DNA of 26,213 nucleotides from contig JBDRNU010000023.1 in the NCBI GenBank assembly GCA_043810775.1, positions 1 through 26,213 on the forward strand. The letters are read 5' to 3'. The notes below the pieces were generated by a model that was not told the DNA's origin, ran no database searches, and was given only the letters and a program-made list of their open reading frames with translations. Source of the stretch: an archaeon. Its GTDB lineage: Archaea; Nanobdellota; Nanobdellia; Pacearchaeales; GW2011-AR1. The position numbers were made by a program, and so were the translations under genes. Below, piece by piece: positions 353 to 24,104 of this stretch (position 1 is its first letter; every line of letters begins with the position of its first letter).

Positions 353-910
353 ATGATAACTTATAATGATATTTATGAGGCTTTAAGAAAAGAGAGGTAT
401 TCTGAGCAGCTTCAGCCCTTAGGTAAAAATTTTATAGTTGATTTTGCCAAGTATATTGAGGAAAAGAAAAATCTATCCAGTAGAGATGGTGATCTTTTTT
501 CTGATAATGTAACTAAATCAAAAAAACAGCTTGAAAATGCGGTTTCTATTTTTAAAGAGCTATTATTAAGGAGAAAAAAGAAGCTTCTTAATTTGTCATT
601 TGTAGCTGCAGAGACAGGGATATCTAAGAGGGACTTTGAGAATATGCTTCCTTTTGAAAAAAAACTTTTTGATGATATTATGTCTGGTATGGAGAAAGCT
701 GAAAAGGAAATCAGCAGTCTGATGAACGGGCATAAAGTTGAGGAGATAAAAAATGCCCTCATTGTTTTTAAAGAGGATACTGAACAATTTTTAGGAATTA
801 GTGGCGAGACTCTAGGACCTTATGTTAAAGGAGATATAGCTAATCTCCCAAGTGATATAGCTAAAATTCTTGTTGGAGGAAAGAAAGCAGGTTATTTAGA
901 TGAAGGATGA
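353..910 (+). CDS. gins51: DNA replication GINS complex subunit (Gins51/Gins15 type)
   Basis: Helical A-domain (LRKERYSEQLQPL...RRKKKLL...MLPFEKKLF) followed by the beta B-domain motif F-x-G-x-x-G-x-x-x-GP-x-x-x-GD-x-x-x-LP-x-x-x-A-x-x-L. Confidence 0.85.
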   Translation: MITYNDIYEALRKERYSEQLQPLGKNFIVDFAKYIEEKKNLSSRDGDLFSDNVTKSKKQLENAVSIFKELLLRRKKKLLNLSFVAAETGISKRDFENMLPFEKKLFDDIMSGMEKAEKEISSLMNGHKVEEIKNALIVFKEDTEQFLGISGETLGPYVKGDIANLPSDIAKILVGGKKAGYLDEG

Positions 911-1650
911 CAAGCATTTTGATTTCAGTATTACTAGGATTGGTGCAAGGAATTAGTGAGTGGCTTCCAATTTCTTCAAGTGGGCATCTTGCGATTATTC
1001 AGAATATTTTTAAAATAAATGTTGGGGTTGAATTTGACATAGCCCTTCATTTTGGGACTATTTTGGCTGTTGTTGTGTTTTTTTGGAAAGATATAGTGAA
1101 AATAGTTACTAAGGAACAGAAAATTTTAGTATATATTATTGTTGCGAGTATCCCTACTGCAATAATTGGTTTTGGGCTTTCGCTTTATATTAACAATATA
1201 TTTTCAAGTTTTTTGATTATTGGGATTTCTTTTTTAATTACTGGGGCTTTAATTTTTATTTCAAGCTTGTATTTTGAAAGAGGAAAGTTAAATATTAGGA
1301 ATACTTTTATTGCTGGAATTTTCCAAGGTGTAGCTGTAATTCCGGGAATATCCAGAAGTGGAGCTACAATATCCAGCTTGATGTTTCAAGGGGTTGAAAG
1401 AAAACAGGCAGCTAGATTTTCTTTTTTATTAGCTATTCCTGCTGTTATTGGAGCGAATTTAATAGAGATAAAGAGCATTGTTAGTTTAGATTATTTTAAT
1501 TTAATTCCAGGCTTATTAGCTGCTTTTATAGGTGGATTAGTTGCCTTATTTTTACTTTTTAATTATATGATAGAATCTAGGTGGAGGTGGTTTGCTTATT
1601 ATTGTTGGTTTTTAGGATTAGTGGTTTTGATATTGTATTTTTTGATATAA
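907..1650 (+). CDS. uppP: Undecaprenyl-diphosphate phosphatase (BacA/UppP family)
   Basis: QGISEWLPISSSGHL and PGISRSGATI motifs, AARFSFLL, multiple TM helices; overlaps the upstream stop (ATGA). Confidence 0.95.
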   Translation: MTSILISVLLGLVQGISEWLPISSSGHLAIIQNIFKINVGVEFDIALHFGTILAVVVFFWKDIVKIVTKEQKILVYIIVASIPTAIIGFGLSLYINNIFSSFLIIGISFLITGALIFISSLYFERGKLNIRNTFIAGIFQGVAVIPGISRSGATISSLMFQGVERKQAARFSFLLAIPAVIGANLIEIKSIVSLDYFNLIPGLLAAFIGGLVALFLLFNYMIESRWRWFAYYCWFLGLVVLILYFLI

Positions 1651-3668: not shown

Positions 3669-3675
3669 TTTAATA

Positions 3676-3766
3676 AGCCTGCGGAGGGATTTGAACCCCC
3701 GACCCTTGGTTTTTTTGATTTTAATTTATACAAAACCAATGCTCTAGCCAACTGAGCTACGCAGGC
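3676..3766 (-). tRNA. tRNA-Thr(UGU) with 17-nt intron at canonical position 37/38 (intron 3712-3728)
   Basis: Minus strand folds as GCCTGCG/CGCAGGC acceptor, GCTC/GAGC D-stem, TTGGT/ACCAA anticodon stem with TT-TGT-A|intron|A, and T-loop TTCAAAT. Intron CAAA pairs with exon TTTG, forming the central helix of a bulge-helix-bulge-like motif. Confidence 0.93.
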
Positions 3767-3849
3767 TTAATATTAGTGATAGAAGAGAGTTTAAAAAGGT
3801 TATTTATGACTATAGTAATTCTTATAAAGTGGGGTAATAGAGTTTGAGT

Positions 3850-5755: not shown

Positions 5756-6919
5756 TTAGCTTAATTCTTGTTTAAGAGAATCAACTTTGTCTAATCTTTC
5801 CCAAGTGAAATCTGGGTCGCTCCTTCCGAAGTGACCATAAGCAGCAGTTTTTTTATAAATTGGCCTTTTTAAGTCGAGCTGCTTTAGTATATCTGCTGGT
5901 TTAAGAGGAAAATTTTTCTTGATAAGTTCTATGATTTTTTCTTCTGGTATTTTGTTAGTATTAAAACAATCTAAATGAACTGAAGTTGGTTCTGCTACTC
6001 CCAGGGCATAACTTAGCTGAATTTCACACTTATCGACTAGACCAGCAGCAACTATATTCTTAGCTATATATCTTGCTGCATATGCAGCACTTCTATCAAC
6101 TTTTGATGGGTCTTTTCCCGAGAAACACCCTCCTCCATGCCTTCCAATTCCACCATAGGTATCAACAATAATTTTTCTTCCTGTAACGCCTGTGTCTGCT
6201 TCTGGACCGCCCATTACAAATCTACCTGAAGCATTAATATGAATTTTTGTGTTTTCATCGAGCATATTTCCACATACAGGTTTTATGACTTTTTCTAGGA
6301 TTTCTTTTTTAAGTTCTTCTTCTTCAATATCATTTTTATGCTGCTGCGCAATAACTACAGCTTCAATTCTTTTTGGTTTTTCATCTTCATATTCTACTGT
6401 AACCTGGCTTTTTCCGTCCGGGCCTAGACTTTTCACTTCTCCGTTTCTTCTTACTTCAGCTAATTTTCTTGTTAGTTTGTGAGCAAGAATTATTGGCAGA
6501 GGCATATATTCAGGTGTTTCATTACAAGCATAACCATACATCATTCCTTGATCTCCTGCCCCTTGTTCTTTATGCTGGCCTTGATTTTCTGTTACGCCCT
6601 GACTTATATCTGGACTTTGACCGTGAATGGATACCCAGACACCTGCGTCTTCATAATCTATTCCAAATTGAGGATCTATATAACCAATTTCTTTAAGAGT
6701 TTGCCTGACTATTTTTTGAATATCTGCGTATCCATTAGTTGTTACTTCACCTGCTACATGGATTGTGCCCGTTGTTGTAAGGCATTCAATAGCTACTCTT
6801 GAGTTTGGATCTTGTTTTAGAAATTCATCTAGGATAGAATCTGATATCTGGTCACAAATTTTATCTGGATGTCCTTCTGTTACTGATTCAGAAGTGTAAA
6901 AATATTTTCCTTTTTTCAT
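5756..6919 (-). CDS. metK: S-adenosylmethionine synthetase, bacterial/eukaryotic type
   Basis: [37 protein letters not shown][13 protein letters not shown] and TAAYGHFGR motifs. Confidence 0.98.
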
Positions 6920-6974: not shown

Positions 6975-7047
6975 TGGGCCTGCGCAGAATTGAACTGCGA
7001 ATCTCATCGACGTCAACGATGCGTCATAACCACTAGACCACAGGCCC
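6975..7047 (-). tRNA. tRNA-Val(GAC)
   Basis: Minus strand has GGGCCTG/CAGGCCC acceptor, CATCG-TT-GAC-GT-CGATG anticodon arm, and CGCAG-TTCAATT-CTGCG T-arm. CCA is not encoded. Confidence 0.95.
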
Positions 7048-7139: not shown

Positions 7140-9065
7140 ATGTATAGTAGAAAAAGAGGAACTCGCGCCCTGAGTTGTGATTATAATAAAAATATACTCA
7201 ACTCAAAACGCTCGCAAATAACAGTATTTGTAATTATAGCTATAGTAATAGTATGTGTTATTGGAGCTTATTTTGTATTAAAAGACAGATTATTTATAAA
7301 TGAAATTCCAGTTGTTTTCCAGCCAGTTGAAGAGTACTATCTTTCTTGCATTGATGATTTAGGCAGAACAGGAGCTGAAATATTGGGCGAGCAGGGAGGA
7401 TATATTTACTTGCCAGAATTTGAGGCAGGAAGTGAATATAGGCCTTTTTCATCCCAGCTTAATTTTTATGGTACAGGTGTTCCTTATTGGTATTATGTTT
7501 CTGGAAATAATATTATAAAAGAGCAGAAACCAACTAAGAGCTCTATGGAAAGTGATTTGGAGAAATATATTGAAGAAAATATTGGTGAGTGTGATTTTCG
7601 TGAGTTTACAGCTAGGGGATTTGATATTGAGGTTGGAGATAGTGTAAATACAGATGTTTCCATAAGTAATAATAAAATAAGTGTTAATCTAGCCAGAACT
7701 ATTTCAATGAGCTATGGAGAAGAGTCTGCAGTAATAAAGGAGCATAAAAAAGATATAAGCAGCAGTTTGGGAAGGTTTTACAGTCTTGCTACAAAAATTT
7801 ATGATAGTGAAAAACAAGAGGCTTTTCTTGAAAATTATGCTGTTGATGTTTTGAGATTATATGCTCCTGTTGATGGTGTAGAGCTAAGCTGCAGCCCAAA
7901 AGTCTGGCTTTATACTGAGATTGAAGAAGATTTGAAGGCAGCTCTGGAAAGTAATATAATGGCTATAAAATTAGAAGGAGATTATTATTCACTGTCAAAG
8001 AAACAGCATGATTATTTTGTCCATGATATTGGTGTAAATGTTGATAGCAATATAAATTTTCTTTATTCTAAGGATTGGCCTTTTAGGTTTGAGGTGTGGG
8101 AAAGCAATAATGGTGTGTTGATTGGAAAGCCTGTTGGGATGCAAGAAGGTTTAGGGATACTAGGATTTTGTTATGTGCCTTATCATTTTGTATATGATTT
8201 GAATTTTCCAGTTATGATACAGATTTACAATGGCGAGGAATTATTCCAGTTTCCTGTTGCTGTAATTATTGATAAGAATAAACAAAGGGAAGCCCTGCCT
8301 GTTGAAAGCACTTTGGGAGAAGCTGAACCAGAAATGTGCAAGTATAAAACTCAGGAAATTACAGTTTATACTTATGATGTTAATCTGGAGCCAGTTGAAG
8401 CTGAAGTAATTTATAATTGTCTTGGAGCAAGCTGTGATATTGGAAGCACCAGGATTGAAGGAAGTGATGCAATTCTTGTTGGTAGTTTTCCACAGTGCAT
8501 AAATGGATTTGTTTATGCTAATGCAGAGGGATATGCCAGCAACAGGGAAATTTTTTCAACTAATAAAGATGGAGTTGTAAATATTGTGTTAGACAAGCTA
8601 TATAATTTGGAGATTGAATTTACAATTGATGAGAAGATTAGTGAGGATAGAGCTATTATTTCTTTTGTTTCTGAAGATAATACTCAGACAGTTTCTTATC
8701 CTGACCAGGATAGTGTAAAACTTTCTGAGGGGATGTATAATATAAGTGTTTATGCTTATAGTGATTCGAAAGTTACTATTCCTGGATTAGATGAAGAGAT
8801 TTGCACTGAGGTGCCTAAGGAGGGATTGCTGGGAGTTTTTGGAGTTAGTGAAGAAAAGTGCTTTGATGTTAATACTGAGTCTCAGGAGATTTCAAATAGT
8901 ATCTCTGGAGGAGGAAATCAGGAGGAGTATTTAATTGAGTCACAGCTACAGACTGGCAAGATTAAGATTAATGTTGATAGTATTCCTGTTCCAGATAGTA
9001 TTGATGATTTGCAGGACGCTTATAATTTAGTGGAAGTTTTAGGAGTGGATATTGGGTTTGGTTAA
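7140..9065 (+). CDS. Large Cys-containing surface protein with class III (prepilin/archaellin-type) signal peptide
   Basis: KRS|QITVFVIIAIVIV N-terminus (basic-basic-small|Q plus hydrophobic helix), followed by an acidic, beta-rich ectodomain with many Cys. Confidence 0.75.
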   Translation: MYSRKRGTRALSCDYNKNILNSKRSQITVFVIIAIVIVCVIGAYFVLKDRLFINEIPVVFQPVEEYYLSCIDDLGRTGAEILGEQGGYIYLPEFEAGSEYRPFSSQLNFYGTGVPYWYYVSGNNIIKEQKPTKSSMESDLEKYIEENIGECDFREFTARGFDIEVGDSVNTDVSISNNKISVNLARTISMSYGEESAVIKEHKKDISSSLGRFYSLATKIYDSEKQEAFLENYAVDVLRLYAPVDGVELSCSPKVWLYTEIEEDLKAALESNIMAIKLEGDYYSLSKKQHDYFVHDIGVNVDSNINFLYSKDWPFRFEVWESNNGVLIGKPVGMQEGLGILGFCYVPYHFVYDLNFPVMIQIYNGEELFQFPVAVIIDKNKQREALPVESTLGEAEPEMCKYKTQEITVYTYDVNLEPVEAEVIYNCLGASCDIGSTRIEGSDAILVGSFPQCINGFVYANAEGYASNREIFSTNKDGVVNIVLDKLYNLEIEFTIDEKISEDRAIISFVSEDNTQTVSYPDQDSVKLSEGMYNISVYAYSDSKVTIPGLDEEICTEVPKEGLLGVFGVSEEKCFDVNTESQEISNSISGGGNQEEYLIESQLQTGKIKINVDSIPVPDSIDDLQDAYNLVEVLGVDIGFG

Positions 9066-9066
9066 A

Positions 9067-12000
9067 ATGTTGTTAGATAAGATAAATAGTTATAGAATTT
9101 TCCTAGTTATGGCTTTGATTTTAATTGCTCAGGTTGGAGCTGTTTGTGCTTTAACTTCTTATGCTTCCAGCTCTTCGAGTACTAGTTTTTCAACTGCTGG
9201 AACTCAGGCTCAGTTTACCTCGCCGAATAGGTATTCTGGATATTCACAACAGTATGCGAGCTTGTACTGGCCTGCTATTACTGACCCTGATAAGTGCGAG
9301 GCTACAAGTGATTTTATTATGAGTGTAAGGCCTTTTTCTTGTTCTCCTTCTGTAGTGAGAAGTGACTTGCTAGAGGAACAGAGTGTTCCTGTTTTTTGCA
9401 AGGTGGATGTTGTTAAGATTAATCCTTTGATTGATGTCAGCCAGATTAAGTCAGTTAAATTTAAAAATAATCCTGGAGATGACAGCAGTTATGTTAGTGG
9501 AGTGAGCTTTCATCCTAACAGGGAGGCAATTTACACAAGGCAGGGAGTGATAGATAATCCTTTTATTAATGATGTGGGTTATGTTGTTGTCTTATTGAAA
9601 AGAATTCAGAATGAAGAGGGCATGCCTGATTCAGTTAGATTGAATTTGACAGGAGTTATCCAGTTTGATGCTGAGGGATTTTTTGGAGCTGGAGAGCAGT
9701 ATTTTTATCTTGACCCTGAGTTTGACTGGATGACTGGAGATAGCTATAAGGAAAATTCTTTTTTTAAGGGCAAGGGATATTTAAGAGCTGACTGGATTGA
9801 TGGAACTTCAGCTGGAATTTCAATTTATAGCGACCAAGATACTAGATTATCCACTTTAACTTTGCAAAAAGGCGAAACTTCTAAAGTAGTTTACTTGCCA
9901 GGATTTTACTGCAAGGCAGGAGTTCAGGTTCAGCTAGAAGACTTGCAGGCTAATATTAAGAAGGCAAGGCTTGAAGTAGATGGAGATGATATTTGGGTGG
10001 GGGAGGGGGAGAGATTTTTAGATGGCTTATGCCAGGTTACTAGCATAGTGTATGATAAAAATAAGCAGAGAGAAAAAGGAAATGTAAAAGTTTATTGTGC
10101 TGGAAAAACTTATACTCTGGAATATGAAAATAAAATTGATAATGGAGTTGTAAGTGAGGATAATAAGTGTGAAAATATAAACCCTTCAGAAGAGGTTATG
10201 CAGAAATATGAGGCTGCTGAAAAATATGCTTATGAGGTTAGAGGATTATATGGAAGTGCAATTGATGAGCAGACAGGAGAGATTTGGGCTGCTAAAGCTT
10301 TGCTTGAATTAGGAAGATTAGCTGATGAGATAGGATTAAAGGCAGATGCTATGGATATTTATCAAGATGTTATTGATGAGTTTCCAGGAAGCAATGCTGC
10401 TGATGAGATTGAGAAAAATGACTTAATAGACAGTGTTTGCAGGCCAAGCACTAGCTATGATGAGCATTTTATTAAGCTGAAGAGAGTTTCTTTTCCAACT
10501 GATTCTAATGCTTCTTTTAGTGTTATAAAAGATGGAAGCACTACTATTCAAGGCAAGGATAAGCAAGTGACTGAAAATGTGATGTTTGCAGACAATAGAT
10601 TTAGAATTGAGAAGCTTTATGCTGACAGGGTTGATTTGTATTATTATAAGCAGGGAACCAGTGACAGTGAACAATTTACGCTGAGCTTTTCTGAAAAAAG
10701 CAGGACTTTTATTGATGGGGAATTTAAATATGAGATTACACTGGAAGATATTAATTACAAGCAAATTGCGAAGGTGAAGCTGATTTCTAAGATGCCTAAT
10801 GAGTATTCTGAATCTGATTTTACAGTTGAAATTGGAATTGAAAAGCGAGCTATTAAGCTTAGCCCTGAGAAGACTCAGGAAATGATTAATAATTTAAATG
10901 ACAGCATAGAAAGATGGGAAGAAATAACTGAAAATTTAGGAAATGTTGTCAAGGGAATGAAAGGAGTTTGTCTGGCTACTTCTACTGTCTTGTTTGTAAA
11001 GAATTTTATTGCTAATACTGGCGGAAGAGCTACTGCAAGGCAGAAGGTTATGCCTATTTATTATAAAAAGTGCGAGCAGAAAGTTGGCAGTGACAGGGGG
11101 GCAATGGATGCTTGTTTAGTAGGAGAAGAAGCCAATATTAAGAGAGATATTGATGCATATACAAGGATAATTGATGGAACTGGAGGGGTTGGTGGGGTGA
11201 ATAAGGCAGTTATTGATACTCAAAATAATAATAAAATTCCTGGAAGTGATGCTATTGACAGGGGAGCAACTGCTGACAGCTTGAGAACAAGTTTTTTTTC
11301 AAATAAACCTGTTAGTTTCTCTCTGGGAAGTCAGACAATTACAATTAAAGATACAGAACTTCAAAAAGCAAGCACTACACAATTAAGAGATTTAAAAGCT
11401 TATCAAGAGGTATTAAACAGCGATGCTAGCACAGATTTTAAGGAAAATGCTTATGCTGAAATTAGCAAAATTCATACCCAGCTAGAATTAAAAGAAGGAG
11501 TAATTAGAGCAGATGAAGATAGTCTTTTTGACCCAGAAGCAAAAAGTGAGAAGCAGTTTGATTGGCTTGACAGAGTCAGGGTAGAGTATTATCCAAGTGG
11601 AAAGCATAAGAATTTAGCTTATGTTGTGCCTATTCCAAAGTTCTATGATAGCAAGACTGGATTTTATGTTATTGTTGATGAGGGGGGATATGCTAGTGAA
11701 AAGGCTTATACTGATGCAGGAGACTTGAAAAGATATACTATTAAGAATCTTGGAAGTGATGGACAGCCTGATTTTGCCAATGATATGGGTTATACTTATG
11801 ACATTAACCAGAGACTAGATGCTGGGCAGAAAATACTTGGATTGAGCCATGAGGCTTCCAAGCAGTTAGTTACTGATGCTTCTCAGGCTATTTATCAGGC
11901 AAATAGAAATTATGGGAGGTCAAGATTTAGCTTGTTTGAGCAGGAAGTAAGAGTTAATCCTGCTGGAAAATCAACTGATTATGTAAGATGCCAGGACTTT

Positions 12001-14541
12001 ATGAGCCCTAGTGACTGTCATATTTTGTTTAATGTTTGCGACCCTGTATTATGCCCTAGCAGCAGATGTGATTTAGGGGGAGCTTATAGAGTTGATAATG
12101 TTATTCAGTCTGGAATAATTGGAAGCATTGCTTTATGCCTGCCTAATGTTAAGGATGGAATAATTATTCCGGTTTGTTTAAGTGGAATTCATGCAGGCTT
12201 GGAAAATTATGTTTCAATACTAAAAGCTCATAGAGACTGCTTGCAGGAAAGCCTGAATACTGGAAGACAGGTTGGGGTTTGCGATGAGATTTATAGTATT
12301 TATTTGTGCGAGTTTTTCTGGAGGCAGATAGGTCCGTTTATGGATGCGCTGATTCCCAAGCTAATAGAGTATTCGTTTGGGCAGGGATCTAGGGGTGGCG
12401 GGGAGTATTTAACTGTTGAAGATGCCTGGACTGATTTAGAAAAAGGAACTGACTGGATGAAGCAGGAGTATGGGGTAAATTCCTGGAATGCATTTAATGC
12501 AAGAAGCACAGATGATATTGGGAGTGAGATTTGCAAGAATTTTATTTCTACCAGATATCCTGCTAGCAAGGATTTTTTTGATAATTTATTAGAGCCAGAC
12601 AGCCCTGTTCAGTTTAGCGCCTGGTTTGATGAGATTCCATTTTCAGAAGCTACTGTTCCAGCTACTTCACAGTATAAGGTGTTTTATCATATTTATGCTG
12701 GAAAAGATGATGGAGCTTATTTTCAGGTTTATTTGAAGACTCCTCCTGATTATGCTTATGTTGGAGTTTCAGATACTATTGTAGTAAGAACTGGATATAC
12801 TCCTCGAGGTTCAAGCACTAGCGAAACTAAGGATTTTACAGCTCCAGCAGGATATCAGGAGCTGTGTGTTAGAATAAATGGAAAGGATGAGTGCGGTTTT
12901 GGCAAGGTATCGACAAGCTTTGCTGTGAATTATGTTTCTGATTTATATTATCAGGAGCAACTGGATAAAGAGGATATTGCGGGCAGTGATGAGTGTATTA
13001 GCGGAGAGAATTCTCTGCTAGGAGCTTTAAGGCCTAATATTCAGGAAGGAGTTGATACTGCTATTAATCCTGAACTTGAGAAAAAAGGAGTTGTTAGGAT
13101 TTGCTCTACTAAGAATCCTGGAATTGGCGTTGAAGAGACTAGGTGGAAGAAAGTTGGCTATTGCGATGATGAGGAAATGATTTGCTGGCTTGACAAGAGA
13201 AGTGTTGAAGATGTTATTAAGAACAAGAATATTGCTTCAAGCATTGTTGAAGATACTGGGGCTGTTAAAACTGTGATTGATGAGAGTGAAATCTGGACAA
13301 TGGAAAAGGTTGGAGAGGTTTTTGATAATTCTGAACTTTTGTTTTTTGATATTAAAAATGAAAGAAAGAAAGTTGGTGATGCTGAGACTATTACTGCAGT
13401 TAATAATATGATTGCAAGTTTAGATGATGTTCAAGCTCACTCATATAATTATGTTGCAGCTGAAGCTGTTTACTGGCAGTATAAGCTTTATGATGCTTAT
13501 ACTAGCAAGTTGTATGAAGCAAGAAAGCCAAGCAGCGGGGTGGTTGGGGGAGAGCCGACTATTAGCGGGACTACTGAGACTCCGGTTGTTAGTAGTGTGT
13601 CTATATTTGAATATAAAGATGGTAAAGTTAGTGGAAACTTGTTTTATAAGTTTGATAGTGAATGGTATTTTGCTACTAATAAAAACGGACCCTGGTATAA
13701 AATTGATGAATTAGATATAGCTACAAATGATTATGGGGATAGTGCTTCTTTTTTGACTAGATTAAAAGCAAATAAAAATAGTTATGTAAGGGGAGTTGAA
13801 GAGCTTGTTAGTAAGTTTATTGTTGATAGTAGTAGTTGTACTCTTTTTTGTCCAGCGGTTGAAGTTACTAAAAGCAGTAATGTGAAAAGTTGGGGGAAAA
13901 GTGATATTTCTAGTTCTGCTAGTATGGCTAAAGCTGAAATTACTAGAGAAATTTTAGATTTTACTGGGGGTGGTGATTTAGGTGGGTCTGTTAAAGAAGA
14001 TAATAAAAAAGTCATAGTAATTGATCCTGGGCATGGTGGAGATAGTCTAGGTGCTATTTCTTCTATTGATGGAACTAAGGAAAAAGATGTTAATCTTCAG
14101 ATTGCATCAGCTTTGAAGAATGAATTAATAACAGCAGGGTATAGGGTTATTATGACTAGAGAAAGGGATATTAGTGTTAATCTTCAAGATAGAGTAACTA
14201 TCGCTAAAGAAAATAATGCTAATTATTTCGTAAGTATTCATGCAAATTCTGCTGAGGATTGCACAAATGTAAAAGGTGTTGAAGTTTATTATAGTAATAA
14301 TAGAGATTTAGAACTGGCAAATTCTATTTTAATACAACTTTCTAATTTAGGTTTTGAAAATAGGGGGGTGAAAGAAGATAGTCAATCTCAATATAGAGAT
14401 TTGTACGTGCTTCAAAATACTGAAATGCCATCTGTTTTGGTTGAGGTAGGATTTCTTTGCAATCAAGCTGACCTAACTAAAATTAAAAGTACAGCAAGTG
14501 TTGCGGAAGCTATTAGTAATGGGGTATCCTCTGTTGTTTGA
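9067..14541 (+). CDS. Giant secreted Cys-rich multidomain protein with C-terminal N-acetylmuramoyl-L-alanine amidase (Amidase_3) domain
   Basis: Hydrophobic signal region; TPR-like segment (~10200-10410); coiled coil (~10860-10960); Cys-rich core (~11990-13190). C-terminus (~14005-14541) has IDPGHGG, EKDVNL, TR, L-x-x-R, FVSIHANS, GVEVYY, LYVL and PSVLVEVGF. ATG 9067, 1 nt after the upstream stop, is preferred over TTG 9052. Confidence 0.9.
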   Translation: MLLDKINSYRIFLVMALILIAQVGAVCALTSYASSSSSTSFSTAGTQAQFTSPNRYSGYSQQYASLYWPAITDPDKCEATSDFIMSVRPFSCSPSVVRSDLLEEQSVPVFCKVDVVKINPLIDVSQIKSVKFKNNPGDDSSYVSGVSFHPNREAIYTRQGVIDNPFINDVGYVVVLLKRIQNEEGMPDSVRLNLTGVIQFDAEGFFGAGEQYFYLDPEFDWMTGDSYKENSFFKGKGYLRADWIDGTSAGISIYSDQDTRLSTLTLQKGETSKVVYLPGFYCKAGVQVQLEDLQANIKKARLEVDGDDIWVGEGERFLDGLCQVTSIVYDKNKQREKGNVKVYCAGKTYTLEYENKIDNGVVSEDNKCENINPSEEVMQKYEAAEKYAYEVRGLYGSAIDEQTGEIWAAKALLELGRLADEIGLKADAMDIYQDVIDEFPGSNAADEIEKNDLIDSVCRPSTSYDEHFIKLKRVSFPTDSNASFSVIKDGSTTIQGKDKQVTENVMFADNRFRIEKLYADRVDLYYYKQGTSDSEQFTLSFSEKSRTFIDGEFKYEITLEDINYKQIAKVKLISKMPNEYSESDFTVEIGIEKRAIKLSPEKTQEMINNLNDSIERWEEITENLGNVVKGMKGVCLATSTVLFVKNFIANTGGRATARQKVMPIYYKKCEQKVGSDRGAMDACLVGEEANIKRDIDAYTRIIDGTGGVGGVNKAVIDTQNNNKIPGSDAIDRGATADSLRTSFFSNKPVSFSLGSQTITIKDTELQKASTTQLRDLKAYQEVLNSDASTDFKENAYAEISKIHTQLELKEGVIRADEDSLFDPEAKSEKQFDWLDRVRVEYYPSGKHKNLAYVVPIPKFYDSKTGFYVIVDEGGYASEKAYTDAGDLKRYTIKNLGSDGQPDFANDMGYTYDINQRLDAGQKILGLSHEASKQLVTDASQAIYQANRNYGRSRFSLFEQEVRVNPAGKSTDYVRCQDFMSPSDCHILFNVCDPVLCPSSRCDLGGAYRVDNVIQSGIIGSIALCLPNVKDGIIIPVCLSGIHAGLENYVSILKAHRDCLQESLNTGRQVGVCDEIYSIYLCEFFWRQIGPFMDALIPKLIEYSFGQGSRGGGEYLTVEDAWTDLEKGTDWMKQEYGVNSWNAFNARSTDDIGSEICKNFISTRYPASKDFFDNLLEPDSPVQFSAWFDEIPFSEATVPATSQYKVFYHIYAGKDDGAYFQVYLKTPPDYAYVGVSDTIVVRTGYTPRGSSTSETKDFTAPAGYQELCVRINGKDECGFGKVSTSFAVNYVSDLYYQEQLDKEDIAGSDECISGENSLLGALRPNIQEGVDTAINPELEKKGVVRICSTKNPGIGVEETRWKKVGYCDDEEMICWLDKRSVEDVIKNKNIASSIVEDTGAVKTVIDESEIWTMEKVGEVFDNSELLFFDIKNERKKVGDAETITAVNNMIASLDDVQAHSYNYVAAEAVYWQYKLYDAYTSKLYEARKPSSGVVGGEPTISGTTETPVVSSVSIFEYKDGKVSGNLFYKFDSEWYFATNKNGPWYKIDELDIATNDYGDSASFLTRLKANKNSYVRGVEELVSKFIVDSSSCTLFCPAVEVTKSSNVKSWGKSDISSSASMAKAEITREILDFTGGGDLGGSVKEDNKKVIVIDPGHGGDSLGAISSIDGTKEKDVNLQIASALKNELITAGYRVIMTRERDISVNLQDRVTIAKENNANYFVSIHANSAEDCTNVKGVEVYYSNNRDLELANSILIQLSNLGFENRGVKEDSQSQYRDLYVLQNTEMPSVLVEVGFLCNQADLTKIKSTASVAEAISNGVSSVV

Positions 14542-14585
14542 TTCTTAAATTTTATTTCTAGAAGAAGGTATATTAAAGATAACAT

Positions 14586-14725
14586 AATGCGGGCATTGAT
14601 AGAGCGCATTTTCTAATAAAAATGCGGGAGAAAGCCCACGACAATTCTACGAATTCTCGGGGACTTAAACTTTCGCAAGTTTAAGTGATTCGAACTCAAA
14701 ACCACATGCGGGTTTTGTATCCTTT
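14586..14725 (-). repeat. Degenerate duplicate of the tRNA-Leu 3' end interrupted by short palindromes
   Basis: 14622-14634 = 14748-14760 (13/13), 14687-14695 = 14761-14769 (9/9) and 14722-14725 = 14770-14773, separated by 52-nt and 26-nt hairpin-forming inserts. Confidence 0.75.
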
Positions 14726-14748: not shown

Positions 14749-14832
14749 TGCGGGAGAAAGGATTCGAACCTTTGCAGGCACTAAGCCACTAGGGCCTAAA
14801 CCTAGCCCGTTTGACCGCTCCGGCACTCCCGC
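14749..14832 (-). tRNA. tRNA-Leu(UAG)
   Basis: Minus strand has GCGGGAG/CTCCCGC acceptor, CTAGG-TT-TAG-GC-CCTAG anticodon arm, a long variable arm, AAAGG-TTCGAAT-CCTTT T-arm and discriminator A. Confidence 0.95.
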
Positions 14833-18911: not shown

Positions 18912-21900
18912 ATGAAGAAAAGAGGAATTTTGGTATTTGTTATTATATATTTTGTCGTATTAGTTTATGCAGGAAGTTTTCAGGATTTGATTCAAAGTGA
19001 TTTTTCTGGGAATTATAATAATACTTTCTACAATACTTCTGGATTTATCCAGGTGGGGAATAATTCTCTTGCGAATATTACCAATGATATAACTGAGATG
19101 AGTGGAAGTGAGCTTGGTTTAGTTTCTTATTGGAGAATGAATTCAAGCTCTTGGAGTGGAAGTTCTGAAGAAGTTATTGATGTTCTTGGAAATAATCATG
19201 GAACAGCAAGAAATGGAGCAACCACTGCTAGTGGATTGTTTGGAAATGCAGGAAGTTTTGACGGAACTAATGATTATATTGATGTGGGAAATTCTAATTC
19301 AGTGAGAATAACTCAGAATATAACTTTATCAGCTTGGATAAAATTTAATTCAATACCTACTGGAACTAATGGGGATTCAATTATATGCAAGAATGAGGGT
19401 GGAGGATATGGATTGCTAGCTAATGAGGCAAGTGATGGAAAAATACAGACTTATTTTCATATTGGTGGAAGTTATAAAAATGTTGGTGTAAGTTTAAGTG
19501 GATTATCTGCTGGCACCTGGTATTATGTTGTTGTAACTTATAATGGCAGTTCAGTTGATTTTTACTTAAATGGAGTAAGGCAGCAGACTGTTGCTGCTAG
19601 TGGAAGCATATCTGATTTGCCTACTGTAAACTTGACAATTGGTGCAAATCCAGCTCCAACTATTGCAACTTATACTAACTTTTTTGATGGATTAATAGAT
19701 GAAGCTGCTGTATGGAATGAAGCTTTGAATTCAAGCGAAATTCTTAGGTTATATCAAAAAGGAAATACTTCTTCCCAGCAGGAATCTCAGCCAACAACTG
19801 GAACATATGAATCTTCAATAAAAGATGCAGGAAGCATTGTAAATTGGACTAATATTTCTTGGAATGGTTTAACACAACAGGAAAATCAGGGAATTACAAC
19901 TCAACAAGGAAATGTTTTGTTAATGCATTTAGAAGGAAATGCAAATGATGAAAATGGAATAAACAATGGAATGCTAATAAATTCTCCTACAAGTGTAGCT
20001 GGAAAGAGTGGGTTTGGATATTATCTAAATGGAGTTAATCAGTATATTGAGATTAATGATCATAATAGTCTAGATTTGAATTCTGATTTTTCTATAGGAT
20101 TATGGGTTAATTTTACTAGTTTGCCATCTACAGGACAGTGGCAGGGACTAATGGCAAAGGGAGGAGCAGGAGATAGCCCGGCTGATTTAAATCATAATTT
20201 TTTCCTGACTTTAGATAACAATATGGGGTGGGGGGCTGGAATAGGGACAACTTGGGGTTATGAAGATAGTGCTGGAGCTAATTATCAGACAAGGTATCAG
20301 TGGACTCCTGTACTTGGAGTTTGGTATCATATTGTAGGTGTTTTTAATGAGAGTGCAAATACAATGACTCTTTATATAAATGGAAGCCAGGTAGCTCAGG
20401 CTAGTGATGCAACTGCTATTCCTATTACAAATACTCATCCTGTATTTATTGGAAGAAATTTAAATGGCTCTACACCTGTTTATTATTTAAATGCGGTTGT
20501 AGATGACGCTTTTATAGCAAATAAATCTCTAGGAGCAAGTGAAATTCAGAGCATTTACACTAATAGCAATACAGTTACTTCAAATGTTAATTTGCAGTTA
20601 AGGATAAGCAGTGATAATTCTTCTTGGAGTGATTATTCAAGTTTTTATAATTCTGCTTCTAATTTAAATTTAAGTAGTTCAAGATATGTACAGTATAGGG
20701 CTTACTTTACAGAAGCAAGCGCTAAATTATATAATGTCAGTTTTTTTTATGATTCTTTAGGAGAGTTGAGTGTTTCTTTAGACAGTCCAGAAGATAATTA
20801 TTTAACTAATCAGTATAATAATATAAATATCACCTGTTCTGCTTCTTCGACTTCACAGCTTGTCAATGTAACTGCTTATTATGATAAGTTTGGCTGGCAG
20901 GAAGTTGAGCCAGCAAGACAGATTTCAGGGACAAGCAATACATCAACTTTCACTTTAAATGAAATTTCTTCTGCAATAAAGTGGAACTGTTATTTTTGCA
21001 GTGCTGATGGGAATTGTTCCTTTGCTTCTAATAATAGGACAATAATAGGGGATATTCAGGCACCGACGATAAATATAGTTTCTCCAGAAGAGAATCACAT
21101 AAGCTCGAGCTTAGGTGCAGATTTTATTTTTAATGTAAGTGATAATAGGGCTACAAGTTTGTCTTGCATATTAATAATAAGTAATATTGAAAAAGCAAGC
21201 AACTCAAGTGTAGTTTCAGGCTTGAATACTATTTTATCTGCTATCTTATCTAATGGAAATTACTCTTGGCAAGTAAACTGTTCTGATGGAATTAATTCAG
21301 CCATAAGTGAAGCAAGAAATATAAGCCTAGCTTCAACTTATACTCCTTTTTGGGCAAAGTCAAATACACATACTCATACTACAAATTCTGATGGAGATAG
21401 CAGCCCTGCAACTGTGGTAAGCTTGTATAAAAATTTAGGATATAGCATATTGGCAATAACTGACCACGGATATGTAACAAATTGCACACCTTTTACTAAT
21501 TTAAGTGCTAATTTTATTTGTGTCAGTTCTGAAGAGTGGACTTCAACGAAGCATATCACTAGGATAAATGTAAGTTCGCCTTATAATAATAATATCATTA
21601 ATATGCAAAATGCTGTAAATGCTGCAAATAGTGGGGGGGGATTTGCAATTGCTGCTCATCCTAATTGGAGTTCAACAATATGGAGTGTTTCTGATTTAAC
21701 TTCTTTGCAAGACTATACTGCTATGGAAATTTATAATAAGGTTATTGAAAGGTTAACTCCAGATCCTTATGCTGTTAAAAAGTGGGATGAGGTATTAAAA
21801 ACCGGGAAAAAAATATTTGGTGTTGCTGCAGATGATATGCACCAGGTTAGTGTTGATTTAGGATATGGATGGACTAAAGTTTATATGCCTCAATTTACAA

Positions 21901-24104
21901 AACAAGATTATATAAATTCAATGAGGATAGGATATTTTTATTCAAGCCAGGGACCTAGTATGGATATAGGACCTTTTGCTTTAGTTTGTGATGAAGATGG
22001 AGGGCATCATATGGGGGAAAGTGTGAACTGTTCTTCTATTAGTGTAAATGCCACAATTTCTGCGACTAATTCAAGCTATAAAATTCAGAATATAAGTTTG
22101 ATTAAAAATGGAGTTGCAATAAGCACAAAAACAGACTGTGCTTCAGAGCAGGACTGCAGTTTTAGTTATTCTGAAAATGTTTCTGCTTCTGGCTATTATA
22201 GGTTGGAGGCAGTGGATAGTAAAAATAAACAGATTTGGAGCAATCCTATATGGGTCACAAAAATAGCTCTTCAAACAACAATAACTATACATTCCCTTCA
22301 AAATAATTCAAATACAAGTGATTATACTCGTTTGTTAAATGTGAGCTTAAATCAAGAAGCTAGTTTATGGTATAATCTAAACGGGGGGAATAACATAACT
22401 TTATGTGGAAGCTGTTCTGCTTACCAAGAGTACTTAACTTTAAGGGAGGGAAGTAATACAATTAATGTTTTTTCAAATAATTCTGATAATATCTTAGTTA
22501 AAAATCAATTGTTAATTAGATTAAATTTTAATAAAACTTTATTTGAAAATTTCTCAGATAATTCTTCAATACTATCAACAAGCAATATTTACTGGAATAA
22601 TAATAAGATGAGTATGAATAGTACAAATATGTTCGGCAACTTTGTTTTTAAAGATATTATTAGTTCAAATAATATTACTGGTTTTAGAGTTTCATGGGTT
22701 GAGAATAATACTGAAAATGCAAAAGGAGAGGGGCAAAGAGTTCCAGTAATTTTAAAATATAAGTTTGGAGATTCTGCTTGGCAGAGTACGGATCCTATTG
22801 GAAATTATATTGTTAATGGATCTAGTATTTCTGGACTAAACTCGAAGAATCTTTCACTTATGATTGATATTGAGAAAAATGATTTTACTCCTGTTGACCT
22901 AATTAATTTTACTATTCATTGGAGTGAGTATACAGTACCTTTAATCACAAATGTTTCAGCTAGTTCTGTTACTTTGAGTTCAGTAATTATAAGATGGAAT
23001 ACTGATTCTCCTTCTAATTCAAGTGTTTATTACGGGACTACAACTTCTTTGGGCAGTGAAATAAATTCAAATAATTCACTAACTTCCCATTCTATTACTT
23101 TAACTGGTTTGAGTCCTTCAACAGGTTATTTTTACAAGGTTCAAAGCTGTACTGAATCAAGCTGTTCACGAGATCCTCAGGAATCTTATCCCCCATATTC
23201 TTTTACAACCCAATCTGTTTCTACTGGAGACGATGACGATTCCGGAAGCAGTGGAGTTAGCTCTGGTGGAGGGGGTGGAGGAGGAGCTGTTCCTGCAATT
23301 AGTCAGGAAGGGGGATTAAAGCTTTTAGTATCTTTAGTTAGTGAGGTTACAATGAGGGCTGGCGAGAAAAAAGCAATTTCAGCTAATATCAAGAATATGG
23401 GGGGCACTTTTCTTAATGACTGCAGGCTGAAAATAAGCGGGGAAACTGCGACTTGGATATCTTCGAACTCGGTTGAGAGTATGGCTCAGGGCCAGGAAAT
23501 TAGCTTTCAGTTTTTAATAAGTGTTCCGAGTGATGCTGATGAAAAGAAGTATAATTCTTATTTGAAAGTTGATTGCAAGGAGGGGGAGAAAGAAGTAAGT
23601 TTTAATATTAATGTTATTCAGAGTTCTTTTAGTATTGAAATTAATAGTTTATCTGAGGATAAAGGCAGAATAACTATTAAATATTTGCTGAAGGAGAATT
23701 CTGGATTAGACCAAGATTTGGAAATTAAATTATGGTTGACAGATCCAAAAGGCACTAAGCTAACTGAAGGAAGTGATAGTGTAAGTTTGAAAGCTGGTGA
23801 ACAGATTGAAAGAGAAGCTATTTTTGAAGTTCCTCCAAATTCAATTGGAGAATTTATAGCTCATATTCAAGCAGTTTCTGGTGATAATTCTAATTTAGTA
23901 TCAGAGTCTATTTTAGTTGGTAGTGGGGGCTTAACTGGAAGAGCTATATTGGGTGGAGGCAATACCACTATCTTGTCAGTTATCTTTATAATAGGTATTG
24001 GAGGATTTCTTGCATATTTTGTTTTAAGGAAAATAATGAAAAATACTGCTAAACAAGATAGAACAGGTTATGTAAAATTAAAATTAGGAAAGAGAAAACA
24101 CTAA
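18912..24104 (+). CDS. Membrane-anchored multidomain surface protein: 2x LamG/concanavalin-like, Ig-like, PHP metallohydrolase, FN3-like, Gly linker, Ig/CARDB-like, C-terminal TM
   Basis: MKKRG signal peptide. LamG patterns (FDG-x-x-DYI...W...WY-x-V...Y-x-NG...F-x-G-x-IDE) at ~19110-19770 and ~19910-20560. PHP motifs HTHT-x-x-SDG, ITDH, AHP, E-x-YN and DDMH at ~21350-21950. FN3-like W-x-TD...H-x-I-x-LTGL-x-P-x-T-x-Y at ~22935-23210. Many N-x-S/T sequons. Confidence 0.85.
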   Translation: MKKRGILVFVIIYFVVLVYAGSFQDLIQSDFSGNYNNTFYNTSGFIQVGNNSLANITNDITEMSGSELGLVSYWRMNSSSWSGSSEEVIDVLGNNHGTARNGATTASGLFGNAGSFDGTNDYIDVGNSNSVRITQNITLSAWIKFNSIPTGTNGDSIICKNEGGGYGLLANEASDGKIQTYFHIGGSYKNVGVSLSGLSAGTWYYVVVTYNGSSVDFYLNGVRQQTVAASGSISDLPTVNLTIGANPAPTIATYTNFFDGLIDEAAVWNEALNSSEILRLYQKGNTSSQQESQPTTGTYESSIKDAGSIVNWTNISWNGLTQQENQGITTQQGNVLLMHLEGNANDENGINNGMLINSPTSVAGKSGFGYYLNGVNQYIEINDHNSLDLNSDFSIGLWVNFTSLPSTGQWQGLMAKGGAGDSPADLNHNFFLTLDNNMGWGAGIGTTWGYEDSAGANYQTRYQWTPVLGVWYHIVGVFNESANTMTLYINGSQVAQASDATAIPITNTHPVFIGRNLNGSTPVYYLNAVVDDAFIANKSLGASEIQSIYTNSNTVTSNVNLQLRISSDNSSWSDYSSFYNSASNLNLSSSRYVQYRAYFTEASAKLYNVSFFYDSLGELSVSLDSPEDNYLTNQYNNINITCSASSTSQLVNVTAYYDKFGWQEVEPARQISGTSNTSTFTLNEISSAIKWNCYFCSADGNCSFASNNRTIIGDIQAPTINIVSPEENHISSSLGADFIFNVSDNRATSLSCILIISNIEKASNSSVVSGLNTILSAILSNGNYSWQVNCSDGINSAISEARNISLASTYTPFWAKSNTHTHTTNSDGDSSPATVVSLYKNLGYSILAITDHGYVTNCTPFTNLSANFICVSSEEWTSTKHITRINVSSPYNNNIINMQNAVNAANSGGGFAIAAHPNWSSTIWSVSDLTSLQDYTAMEIYNKVIERLTPDPYAVKKWDEVLKTGKKIFGVAADDMHQVSVDLGYGWTKVYMPQFTKQDYINSMRIGYFYSSQGPSMDIGPFALVCDEDGGHHMGESVNCSSISVNATISATNSSYKIQNISLIKNGVAISTKTDCASEQDCSFSYSENVSASGYYRLEAVDSKNKQIWSNPIWVTKIALQTTITIHSLQNNSNTSDYTRLLNVSLNQEASLWYNLNGGNNITLCGSCSAYQEYLTLREGSNTINVFSNNSDNILVKNQLLIRLNFNKTLFENFSDNSSILSTSNIYWNNNKMSMNSTNMFGNFVFKDIISSNNITGFRVSWVENNTENAKGEGQRVPVILKYKFGDSAWQSTDPIGNYIVNGSSISGLNSKNLSLMIDIEKNDFTPVDLINFTIHWSEYTVPLITNVSASSVTLSSVIIRWNTDSPSNSSVYYGTTTSLGSEINSNNSLTSHSITLTGLSPSTGYFYKVQSCTESSCSRDPQESYPPYSFTTQSVSTGDDDDSGSSGVSSGGGGGGGAVPAISQEGGLKLLVSLVSEVTMRAGEKKAISANIKNMGGTFLNDCRLKISGETATWISSNSVESMAQGQEISFQFLISVPSDADEKKYNSYLKVDCKEGEKEVSFNINVIQSSFSIEINSLSEDKGRITIKYLLKENSGLDQDLEIKLWLTDPKGTKLTEGSDSVSLKAGEQIEREAIFEVPPNSIGEFIAHIQAVSGDNSNLVSESILVGSGGLTGRAILGGGNTTILSVIFIIGIGGFLAYFVLRKIMKNTAKQDRTGYVKLKLGKRKH

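Follow-up and report, generated by a model that had tools for sequence, protein, structure and literature searches.

The window analysed here, the whole of a 26.2 kb contig (C23) in the genome of a member of the Pacearchaeales (G000; 995 kb in 26 contigs, ~80% complete), carries two adjacent genes. The first, gene 1, encodes a protein with a class-III-type (prepilin-like) signal, and the second encodes a giant secreted protein that ends in an Amidase_3 domain. The two form an operon of long standing that is conserved in a large nanoarchaeal clade, the Pacearchaeales and sister families. Scaffold and partner belong to the core genes of the whole lineage, whereas the amidase is only one of the tips that can be exchanged, a point absent from the sequence-only reading, an earlier interpretation made from the DNA letters without database searches. 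The best explanation of the whole, which we hold to be probable with considerable room for doubt, is a conserved two-gene surface module in which a pilin-like holder bears a giant protein with an amidase tip directed against bacteria. As judged from sequence, the enzyme would be active and its target would be living bacteria.

The two genes are read in the same direction between tRNA-Val and tRNA-Leu (Table 1), as the sequence-only reading had it, and the coordinates agree with its single-nucleotide gap: the stop codon of gene 1 (9063-9065) and the ATG of the giant gene (9067) are separated by exactly one base. The giant frame opens at a TTG at 9052 and runs to 14541; the public record (P0003) starts at the ATG and gives a protein of 1824 aa. 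Conservation of the pair was assessed in 40 relatives from nine families of the order, linkage being a comparison of the two match tables. The gene 1 query has a near-full-length or contig-truncated match in 39 of these genomes and the giant query in all 40. In 37, gene 1 immediately precedes the giant gene on the same strand (in two of them, G005 and G016, only the last codons of gene 1 are on the contig of the giant); in the remaining three (G008, G012 and G040) the pair is split by contig ends or there is no gene 1 match. At each of the 20 loci that were fetched, the two open reading frames (ORFs) overlap or lie no more than 43 nt apart, with TFB and an RNase-Z-like gene as frequent neighbours. 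In relative G021 the giant is split into 491 and 1742 aa.

The same arrangement extends beyond the order. The giant core (residues 840-1500) was found in 66 genomes of a 301-genome sample of the phylum, all in one class. It is near-universal in some families (12/13 genomes of f1, 10/10 of f30, 9/9 of f31 and 13/14 of f32), and was not found in other families of this sample with our own core as the query. Relatives of gene 1 are present in 194 genomes of the sample. Clear core matches outside the order number 51; in 45 of these genomes gene 1 precedes the giant gene, sharing its contig and strand, in five it is on a different contig, and in one it is partly so placed. The sequence-only reading had made its model of a joint apparatus depend on linkage of the two genes in relatives, and linkage is what was found, within the order and outside it.

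The description of the second protein as a secreted, Cys-rich product of ~1,820 aa also stands. It has a predicted signal segment and 33 Cys, and 21-row alignments contain at least 23 invariant Cys columns. Hydropathy reveals a single hydrophobic stretch, the N-terminal signal or anchor (residues 10-40), and no further transmembrane-like segment; in orthologues, the hydrophobic N terminus ends in SAQ, NAQ or RAQ, typical A-x-Q/A sites. Among the matches listed there are at least 964 giant homologues of 1550-2450 aa, named only as Pacearchaeota, Nanoarchaeota or 'archaeon'. Similarity lies in the N-terminal domain (residues ~40-360) and, above all, in the core (~840-1500), and the tails beyond the core are from 9 to 1467 residues long. 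Profiles of gene 1, the giant N-terminal domain and the giant core gave nothing meaningful against PDB sequences (best E 0.0021, to an engineered fusion protein); the profile search found no solved relative of the core, and the ESM Atlas contains no model of the giant and gave no usable match to it. A Pfam scan of the giant at E values up to 0.1 returned only Amidase_3 and a sub-threshold TPR_6.

The Amidase_3 match (PF01520; E 2.3e-48, 165 bits against a cut-off of 27) covers residues 1655-1826 and positions 1-173 of the 174 in the hidden Markov model (HMM); the genome-wide profile search scores the same domain at 170.6 bits. Four His and Glu residues had been picked out from the DNA, and they are found at the codons named, CAT (His) at 14032, GAA (Glu) at 14080, CAT (His) at 14239 and GAG (Glu) at 14443. 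These residues (H1661, E1677, H1730 and E1798), which we take to be the zinc ligands and catalytic Glu of Amidase_3, align with the GHGG, EKD, SIHAN and LVE(T/V)G motifs of 5emi and 5j72. The domain is also matched by the NCBIfam models for CwlD, AmiA, AmiB and AmiC, each under its equivalog cut-off. AmiA/B/C-type enzymes align only over the first ~100 residues, and CwlV/AmiC2-type domains from end to end. The 172 residues span 173 of the 174 HMM positions, i.e. a domain without a large insertion. Division amidases of Escherichia coli carry an autoinhibitory insert, and we infer that the domain described here lacks one. The Amidase_3 domain is intact and uninterrupted, and would be predicted to cut stem peptides off N-acetylmuramic acid (MurNAc).

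Its closest relatives among proteins shorter than 1005 aa are bacterial wherever they are named, at 33-47% identity, with sources including Clostridium, Omnitrophota, cyanobacteria, Poribacteria, Halanaerobiales and Bacillus. The domain resembles the bacterial Amidase_3 enzymes CwlV (1jwq), the Nostoc AmiC2 catalytic domain (5emi), Clostridioides difficile Cwp6 (5j72) and CwlD in its full length and in the same metal-binding and catalytic residues. Bacterial autolysins and endolysins of this family remodel the wall of the producer or of a phage host, and are usually joined to wall-binding repeats. Unlike such stand-alone enzymes, the domain described here forms the end of a 1650-aa archaeal scaffold, with no recognised binding module and, in the genome, no peptidoglycan synthesis genes found.

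Comparison with relatives indicates that the C-terminal end of the giant is exchanged. Pfam searches of the tails of 18 relatives identified SLT in G001 and G033, Peptidase_M23 in G034, G031 and G027, SLT with Amidase_3 in G037, M23 with Amidase_3 in G002, and DUF1615 in G013; SLT, M23 and/or Amidase_3 are thus carried by 7/18. The closest relative of the giant (52% identity, same genus) has SLT at the end equivalent to that occupied here by the amidase. The most frequent tip in a sample of 151 genomes of the order is SLT, present in 78 genomes and inside frames of at least 1500 aa in 30; M23 occurs in 43 and inside frames of that size in 11. Amidase_3 occurs in 18, eight of which, from three families, have it inside frames of at least 1800 aa. 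By hand tabulation, one or more of the three domains is found in frames of at least 1500 aa in 44 of the 151 genomes. Where the same genomes also had giant or core matches, coordinates put the domains in the giant's own frame, usually just past the core (for example G338, G289, G071, G277, G027, G034, G031, G033 and G016); in G146 and G035 a domain also precedes the core. Since many members have no recognisable tip, cutting of peptidoglycan is a common extra of the scaffold and not its conserved function.

Two tips deserve separate description. In G013 (L030, G013:C20) the giant tail at residues ~1821-2053 matches DUF1615 (PF07759, E 1.4e-25), where others have SLT, M23 or amidase. Its position at the tip is a hint that DUF1615 may be another wall-active domain. 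In G032, SLT and Amidase_3 lie in a separate 424-aa ORF (L027:11667-12941, G032:C7). This ORF is in another frame and shares 16 nt with the end of the giant gene, the result either of a genuine split or of an assembly frameshift.

The N terminus of gene 1 reads NSKRS followed by QITVFVIIAIVIVCVIGAYFVL, with predicted cleavage between the two. A 25-residue leader is followed by a 25-residue hydrophobic helix, the only hydrophobic segment of the protein. In an alignment of 110 family members, position -3 is K in 82 and R in 8, position -2 is R in 56 and K in 44, position -1 is G in 52, A in 34 and S in 24, and position +1 is Q in 109. Leader length varies from 4 to 60, and -1 is G, A or S in all 110. 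Examples of orthologous N termini are MDKRKRGQVSIFVIIAILIV and MQKKAQVTLFIIIAIVIV. The prepilin-type KRS/Q signal recognised in the sequence-only reading is thus present and its motif is kept across the family; since Ser occupies -1 in 24/110 homologues, it is a regular variant. There are at least 2185 homologues of gene 1 among the matches listed, the named ones being Pacearchaeota and Nanoarchaeota only.

The genome encodes components that could process and use such a signal. A profile search found a Peptidase_A24 homologue (G000:C5:14609-14950, 55.6 bits), adjoined on contig C5 by a row of small ORFs with pilin-like N termini, and three T2SSE-type ATPases are present, on contigs C3, C7 and C20. 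The suggested link to a type IV pilus-like structure is supported by these genes and by the class-III signal, and is not supported by the position of the pair, which lies outside any pilus-machinery locus. Class-III signals are known also on surface proteins outside pili.

The AlphaFold2 (AF2) model of gene 1, from a 110-row alignment, is confident, with a predicted local distance difference test (pLDDT) score of 88.8. It comprises the N-terminal helix, a second helix, an alpha/beta domain extending to residue ~390 and then C-terminal beta-sandwich domains. Residues 400-490, the only domain matched, resemble transthyretin-like, CnaB and carboxypeptidase-regulatory domains (Z ~10, VIA-align), a fold found also, among the fold matches, in Gram-positive pilins, adhesins and SlaB. 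TM-scores in Foldseek do not exceed 0.14, and neither Foldseek nor VIA-align gave a match to the alpha/beta domain (55-390). The ESM Atlas returned only hypothetical proteins of Nanobdellota and CarboxypepD_reg-like sandwiches. In the model, the beta-sandwich part of gene 1 looks like a stalk.

Further copies of this type of gene were seen in the same genome. A second copy of gene 1 (G000:C11:1-822, minus strand), 51% identical over residues 21-297, ends at a contig edge, and a second giant gene may sit in the unassembled part beyond it. On contig C15 (G000:C15:96227-105848, minus strand) there are two tandem, smaller versions of the pair layout. Their first proteins, of 256-258 aa, have the same class-III motif (KKRAQITIFVIIAI...) and are homologous to gene 1 residues 20-230. 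Each is followed by a secreted protein of 1216-1252 aa with 71 Cys, and two more pilin-like ORFs come after these. The large C15 proteins have no BLAST similarity to the giant. These tandem layouts suggest a general arrangement in this organism of a pilin-like holder with a large exported cargo.

A working model can be drawn from these data. The class-III-type signal of gene 1 would probably be cut by the prepilin-type peptidase of the genome, and the helix would then remain either embedded in the membrane or at the tip of a type-IV-like filament, the beta-sandwich stalk pointing outward. The giant would be exported by its Sec-type signal and then probably held at the surface by gene 1. The latter is the obvious candidate for a holder, because the giant has no other anchor and gene 1 is translationally coupled to it, always present and N-terminally anchored. 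The C-terminal end of the giant may be regarded as a slot, occupied by one peptidoglycan-cutting domain or another according to lineage and here by Amidase_3, and the device would serve to attach to bacteria, to open them locally or to lyse them.

Binding of gene 1 to the giant is likely on account of the conserved operon. Co-folding of the two proteins, proposed in the sequence-only reading, was carried out with gene 1 residues 22-641 and giant residues 31-400. The median score was 0.49, against 0.00 for the best of three controls; the pLDDT of the partners is at least 56, and the runs agree in at least 69% of contacts. In calibration, 58 of 80 solved complexes reached the mark, as did 2 of 110 mismatched pairs. 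Scores of 0.60 or lower were obtained for seven of the 80 solved complexes and for both passing mismatches, so that a score in this range is more often wrong than right unless the pair is likely beforehand. The modelled complex lends weak support to binding.

As to the target, neither a Mur_ligase_M nor a penicillin-binding Transpeptidase match was found in the genome, which is 80% complete, and no LD-carboxypeptidase (Peptidase_S66), sought as a sign of muropeptide use, was found in it. It encodes a 488-aa SLT protein with an N-terminal membrane segment (G000:C20:12153-13619, plus strand) on the contig that also carries a T2SSE-type ATPase, and a Peptidase_M23 protein of 211 aa that has no signal (G000:C12:1090-1725, plus strand). 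The organism apparently makes no peptidoglycan, yet has two predicted exported enzymes that cut it; the amidase therefore most plausibly acts on the walls of other cells. Since no Mur ligase or penicillin-binding protein gene was found, the most likely substrate would be the wall of bacteria that the cell touches. The earlier interpretation as a bacteria-targeting apparatus keeps its support in the predicted exported amidase on a giant protein, the linked pilin-like gene and the apparent lack of wall synthesis. It has to be modified in that the amidase is one option among the tips that the scaffold can bear.

Bacterial minor pilins hold PilY1-type adhesins at the filament tip. The present pair resembles such systems in that a protein with a class-III signal is encoded beside a large, Sec-exported, non-pilin protein. 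It differs in that no sequence or fold similarity to PilY1 was found and in that its locus has no ATPase or platform protein. Archaeal type IV filament loci are described, in the sections of the source available, as encoding PilY-like and other large adhesins (PMC13705601).

Several observations weigh against the two-gene surface module as the best explanation. Gene 1 has no Pfam or NCBIfam match, and no Pfam pilin model is among the matches. The locus of the pair contains no pilus ATPase or platform genes, its neighbours being tRNAs, MetK, TFB and S8e. The co-fold score, as noted, supports binding of the two proteins weakly. The AF2 model of giant residues 830-1829, from a 21-row alignment, has a pLDDT of 49.9, with the amidase part below 35. 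Pfam revealed no recognised peptidoglycan-binding domain (LysM, SH3b, PG_binding_1, SPOR etc.) in the giant. No read or contig in the four other public runs that hold pieces of this locus bridges 13732-14140. Ten of the 18 tails scanned have no Pfam match, and in none of the eight long-tailed database homologues scanned was a Pfam domain found. With local HMMs, a lytic domain was found in two of the 120 closest database homologues (the protein described here and P0004) and in 10 of the 20 locus giants, i.e. in 12/140 giants overall; these HMMs were built from the few domains found and are less sensitive than Pfam, and the Pfam-based genome searches were relied upon. Most members have no recognisable lytic domain, and the conserved job of the scaffold cannot therefore be peptidoglycan cleavage as such.

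This last point gives weight to a possible, if doubtful, alternative in which the pair is a core envelope component: a two-component surface layer (S-layer) similar to SlaB/SlaA, or some other structural element of the envelope, with gene 1 as the anchored stalk and the giant as the canopy. The lytic tip would be an occasional add-on and bacterial targeting a side function. In nearly all members of the clade the two genes are present, each in a single copy and next to the other, and most family members are without lytic domains. As in SlaA and SlaB of the Sulfolobales, a membrane-anchored beta-sandwich stalk and a very large outer protein are encoded by adjacent genes. SlaB (8qox_B) is among the many beta-sandwich proteins that match this part of gene 1 (Foldseek E 6.2e-05, probability 0.99; VIA Z 9.7 over 83 residues). 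Among solved structures, C. difficile Cwp6, a wall protein, ranks second as a match to the amidase; Amidase_3 is known from wall proteins of Clostridioides that are associated with the S-layer. The SlaB match, however, is to a common beta-sandwich only, and is no better than those to pilins and carboxypeptidase regulatory domains. Gene 1 is anchored N-terminally by a class-III-type signal and SlaB is not, the anchor of the latter being at the opposite end and of another type. An envelope role also leaves unexplained why peptidoglycan-cutting domains of three different chemistries recur at one and the same end of the giant.

A somewhat less likely alternative is that the amidase digests free or dead bacterial wall for its peptides, which would feed a cell poor in biosynthesis, with no attachment to, or attack on, living bacteria. 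A predicted exported amidase and an anchored SLT protein in an 80% complete genome in which wall synthesis genes were not found would suit such scavenging, and use of dead-cell peptidoglycan by Pacearchaeota has been proposed, in the part of the paper available (PMC11537232). The genome, however, yielded no Peptidase_S66 and its M23 protein has no signal peptide, and a 1650-aa conserved scaffold with an anchored partner would be a costly means of delivering a digestive enzyme.

It is highly improbable that the substrate is something else, whether the cell's own envelope glycans or the pseudomurein of an archaeal host, or that the domain binds without cutting. In favour of such a reading, Pfam found no peptidoglycan-binding module in the giant, and the hosts of cultured DPANN archaea known so far are described, in the portions of the literature available, as archaea. 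Against this, all four catalytic residues are retained, and in relatives the place of the amidase is taken by SLT or M23, which act on the same polymer. Pseudomurein, moreover, is not known to contain the MurNAc-L-Ala bond. Pseudomurein and self-wall targets were considered and set aside.

Scarcely credible, finally, is an artefact of mis-assembly or binning that joined a bacterial amidase fragment to an archaeal gene: chimeric assembly is very unlikely because of the eight giant-borne amidases in three families (this one and seven others, in addition to that in the tail of G002), the grouping of the amidases in a tree, the single open frame and the even composition. The amidase domains of G037 and G032 are 43-45% identical to that described here and group with it in a quick tree at an SH-aLRT of 89, which is not strong; the G002 amidase is on a very long branch and its placement is unsure. 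GC content at the scaffold-amidase junction is 0.36 and 0.34, without a break, in a window range of 0.29-0.40, and the contig goes on with archaeal tRNA-Leu, TFB and S8e. Read coverage across the junction had been proposed as a check, and here the result neither confirms nor refutes. Of other public runs, from biofilm and groundwater metagenomes, four (three DNA and one RNA, all as contigs) hold short exact pieces only, on both sides of 13732-14140, which none of them bridges, an observation in favour of an artefact. These are 13220-13383, 13419-13728 and 14315-14498 in X1, 14496-14646 in X2, 14141-14291 and 14347-14497 in X3, and 13258-13451 in the RNA run X7, which is no demonstration of transcription. 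Scaffold and amidase pieces are at similar low depth in runs from three studies, which argues weakly against an artefact.

The features of the locus are listed in Table 1.

Table 1. Positions in the window of the gene pair, its domains and the flanking tRNA genes
Feature	Position	Strand	Basis
tRNA-Val(GAC), upstream flank of the gene pair	6975..7047	-	tRNA call
Gene 1, 641 aa, class-III-type signal; conserved upstream partner of the giant gene	7140..9065	+	ORF
Class-III-type signal K23-R24-S25/Q26, then hydrophobic helix to about residue 50	7206..7289	+	Sequence, hydropathy, homologue motif
Giant gene, 1824 aa from ATG, stop included; secreted Cys-containing scaffold and C-terminal Amidase_3	9067..14541	+	ORF, database record
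Giant N-terminal Sec-type signal/anchor, sole hydrophobic segment	9067..9171	+	Hydropathy; cleavage predicted
Giant conserved N-terminal domain, residues ~40-360	9169..10131	+	34-45% identity in nearly all 40 relatives; six invariant Cys
Giant scaffold core, residues 840-1500, family hallmark	11569..13551	+	40-50% identity across the order; 17 invariant Cys
Amidase_3 (N-acetylmuramoyl-L-alanine amidase) domain	14014..14529	+	Pfam match, structure-based alignment
tRNA-Leu(TAG), downstream flank of the gene pair	14749..14832	-	tRNA call

The window contig is archaeal, as the sequence-only reading had assumed. It carries the archaeal markers Gins51, S3Ae, L44e, S8e, TFB and LSm, and relatives bear the names Pacearchaeota or Nanoarchaeota. 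Amid these archaeal genes are a bacterial-type three-domain S-adenosylmethionine synthetase, MetK (5756-6919, minus strand), and a BacA undecaprenyl-diphosphatase homologue (907-1650, plus strand). The tRNA-Tyr(GTA) at 3675-3767 (minus strand) was called at 93 nt, above standard tRNA length, and may contain an archaeal intron. A second giant ORF of 1730 aa (18912-24104, plus strand), with a signal-like N-terminal segment, encodes another large surface protein on the same contig; it has Laminin_G_3 twice (E 7.7e-46) and an fn3/purple-acid-phosphatase-N-like domain, and it matches PHP weakly.

Giant murein-lytic proteins and the idea of bacterial hosts are already in print, in the accessible portions of PMC8204110, PMC9723730 and PMC12352652, so that the novelty of the sequence-only reading does not stand in this respect. 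Castelle (2021; PMC8204110) described large murein-lytic (SLT) proteins as widespread in, and specific to, Pacearchaeota and Woesearchaeota, and proposed that they form a novel class of extracellular enzyme by which the cells attach to the walls of bacteria. The family described here may correspond to the published cluster fam00969. Vigneron et al. (2022; PMC9723730) reported a 'large lytic murein transglycosylase' in Woesearchaeota and argued for predation on bacteria, and a 2024 ISME J paper (PMC11537232) repeats the lytic-protein idea for Pacearchaeota; these statements, too, are taken from the parts of the papers available. The giant described here resembles those of the first two reports (up to ~3000 aa) in being lineage-specific and exported, with a wall-cutting domain read, in the same portions, as a sign of bacterial hosts or prey. 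It is unlike them in that its tip is Amidase_3, with no SLT found by Pfam in the protein itself. The available text of these two papers mentions neither amidase or M23 tips nor an upstream partner with a class-III signal. A literature search found no link of N-acetylmuramoyl-L-alanine amidase to giant proteins of DPANN archaea, and no description of the class-III-signal partner, although supplementary tables might include one or the other. One paper names an alanine amidase and DPANN once each and, going by its title and abstract, is about something else.

Strock et al. (2025; PMC12352652), in the sections available, report that archaeal modular peptidoglycan hydrolases kill bacteria and are prominent in Nanoarchaeota. 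As with Woldo and Danwoldo of Halogranum in that account, the present case is one of an archaeon with an exported, bacterial-type wall hydrolase acquired from bacteria. Those enzymes are described there as small and diffusible, with catalytic and PG_binding_1 domains and Tat or Sec signals, patchy in distribution and often plasmid-borne, whereas the amidase described here sits at the end of a scaffold that is chromosomal, occurs throughout the lineage and has a conserved partner. What is added to the published picture is the amidase as a tip, the exchange of tips and the conservation of the pilin-like partner.

Large lytic-transglycosylase proteins in some members are a published hint as to how, and on which hosts, Pacearchaeota and Woesearchaeota live, two groups that rank with the most abundant archaea yet uncultured. 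The analysis sharpens that existing hypothesis and overturns nothing. It identifies the large protein as a lineage-wide scaffold, the tip of which is swapped among at least three peptidoglycan-cleaving chemistries and which is preceded by a pilin-like partner. This provides a defined two-protein target for tests of expression, localisation and activity, and a possible genomic marker of bacterial association. More tentatively, and with less expectation of being right, the pair may be regarded as the host-contact device of the whole nanoarchaeal clade, with a pilin-like base, a giant arm and interchangeable wall-cutting heads (amidase, lytic transglycosylase, M23 endopeptidase and others unrecognised). 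If this is true, many Pacearchaeales would live on, or prey on, bacteria rather than archaea, and the head would differ according to the chemistry of the host's wall, which would allow sequence-based host prediction for uncultured DPANN archaea.

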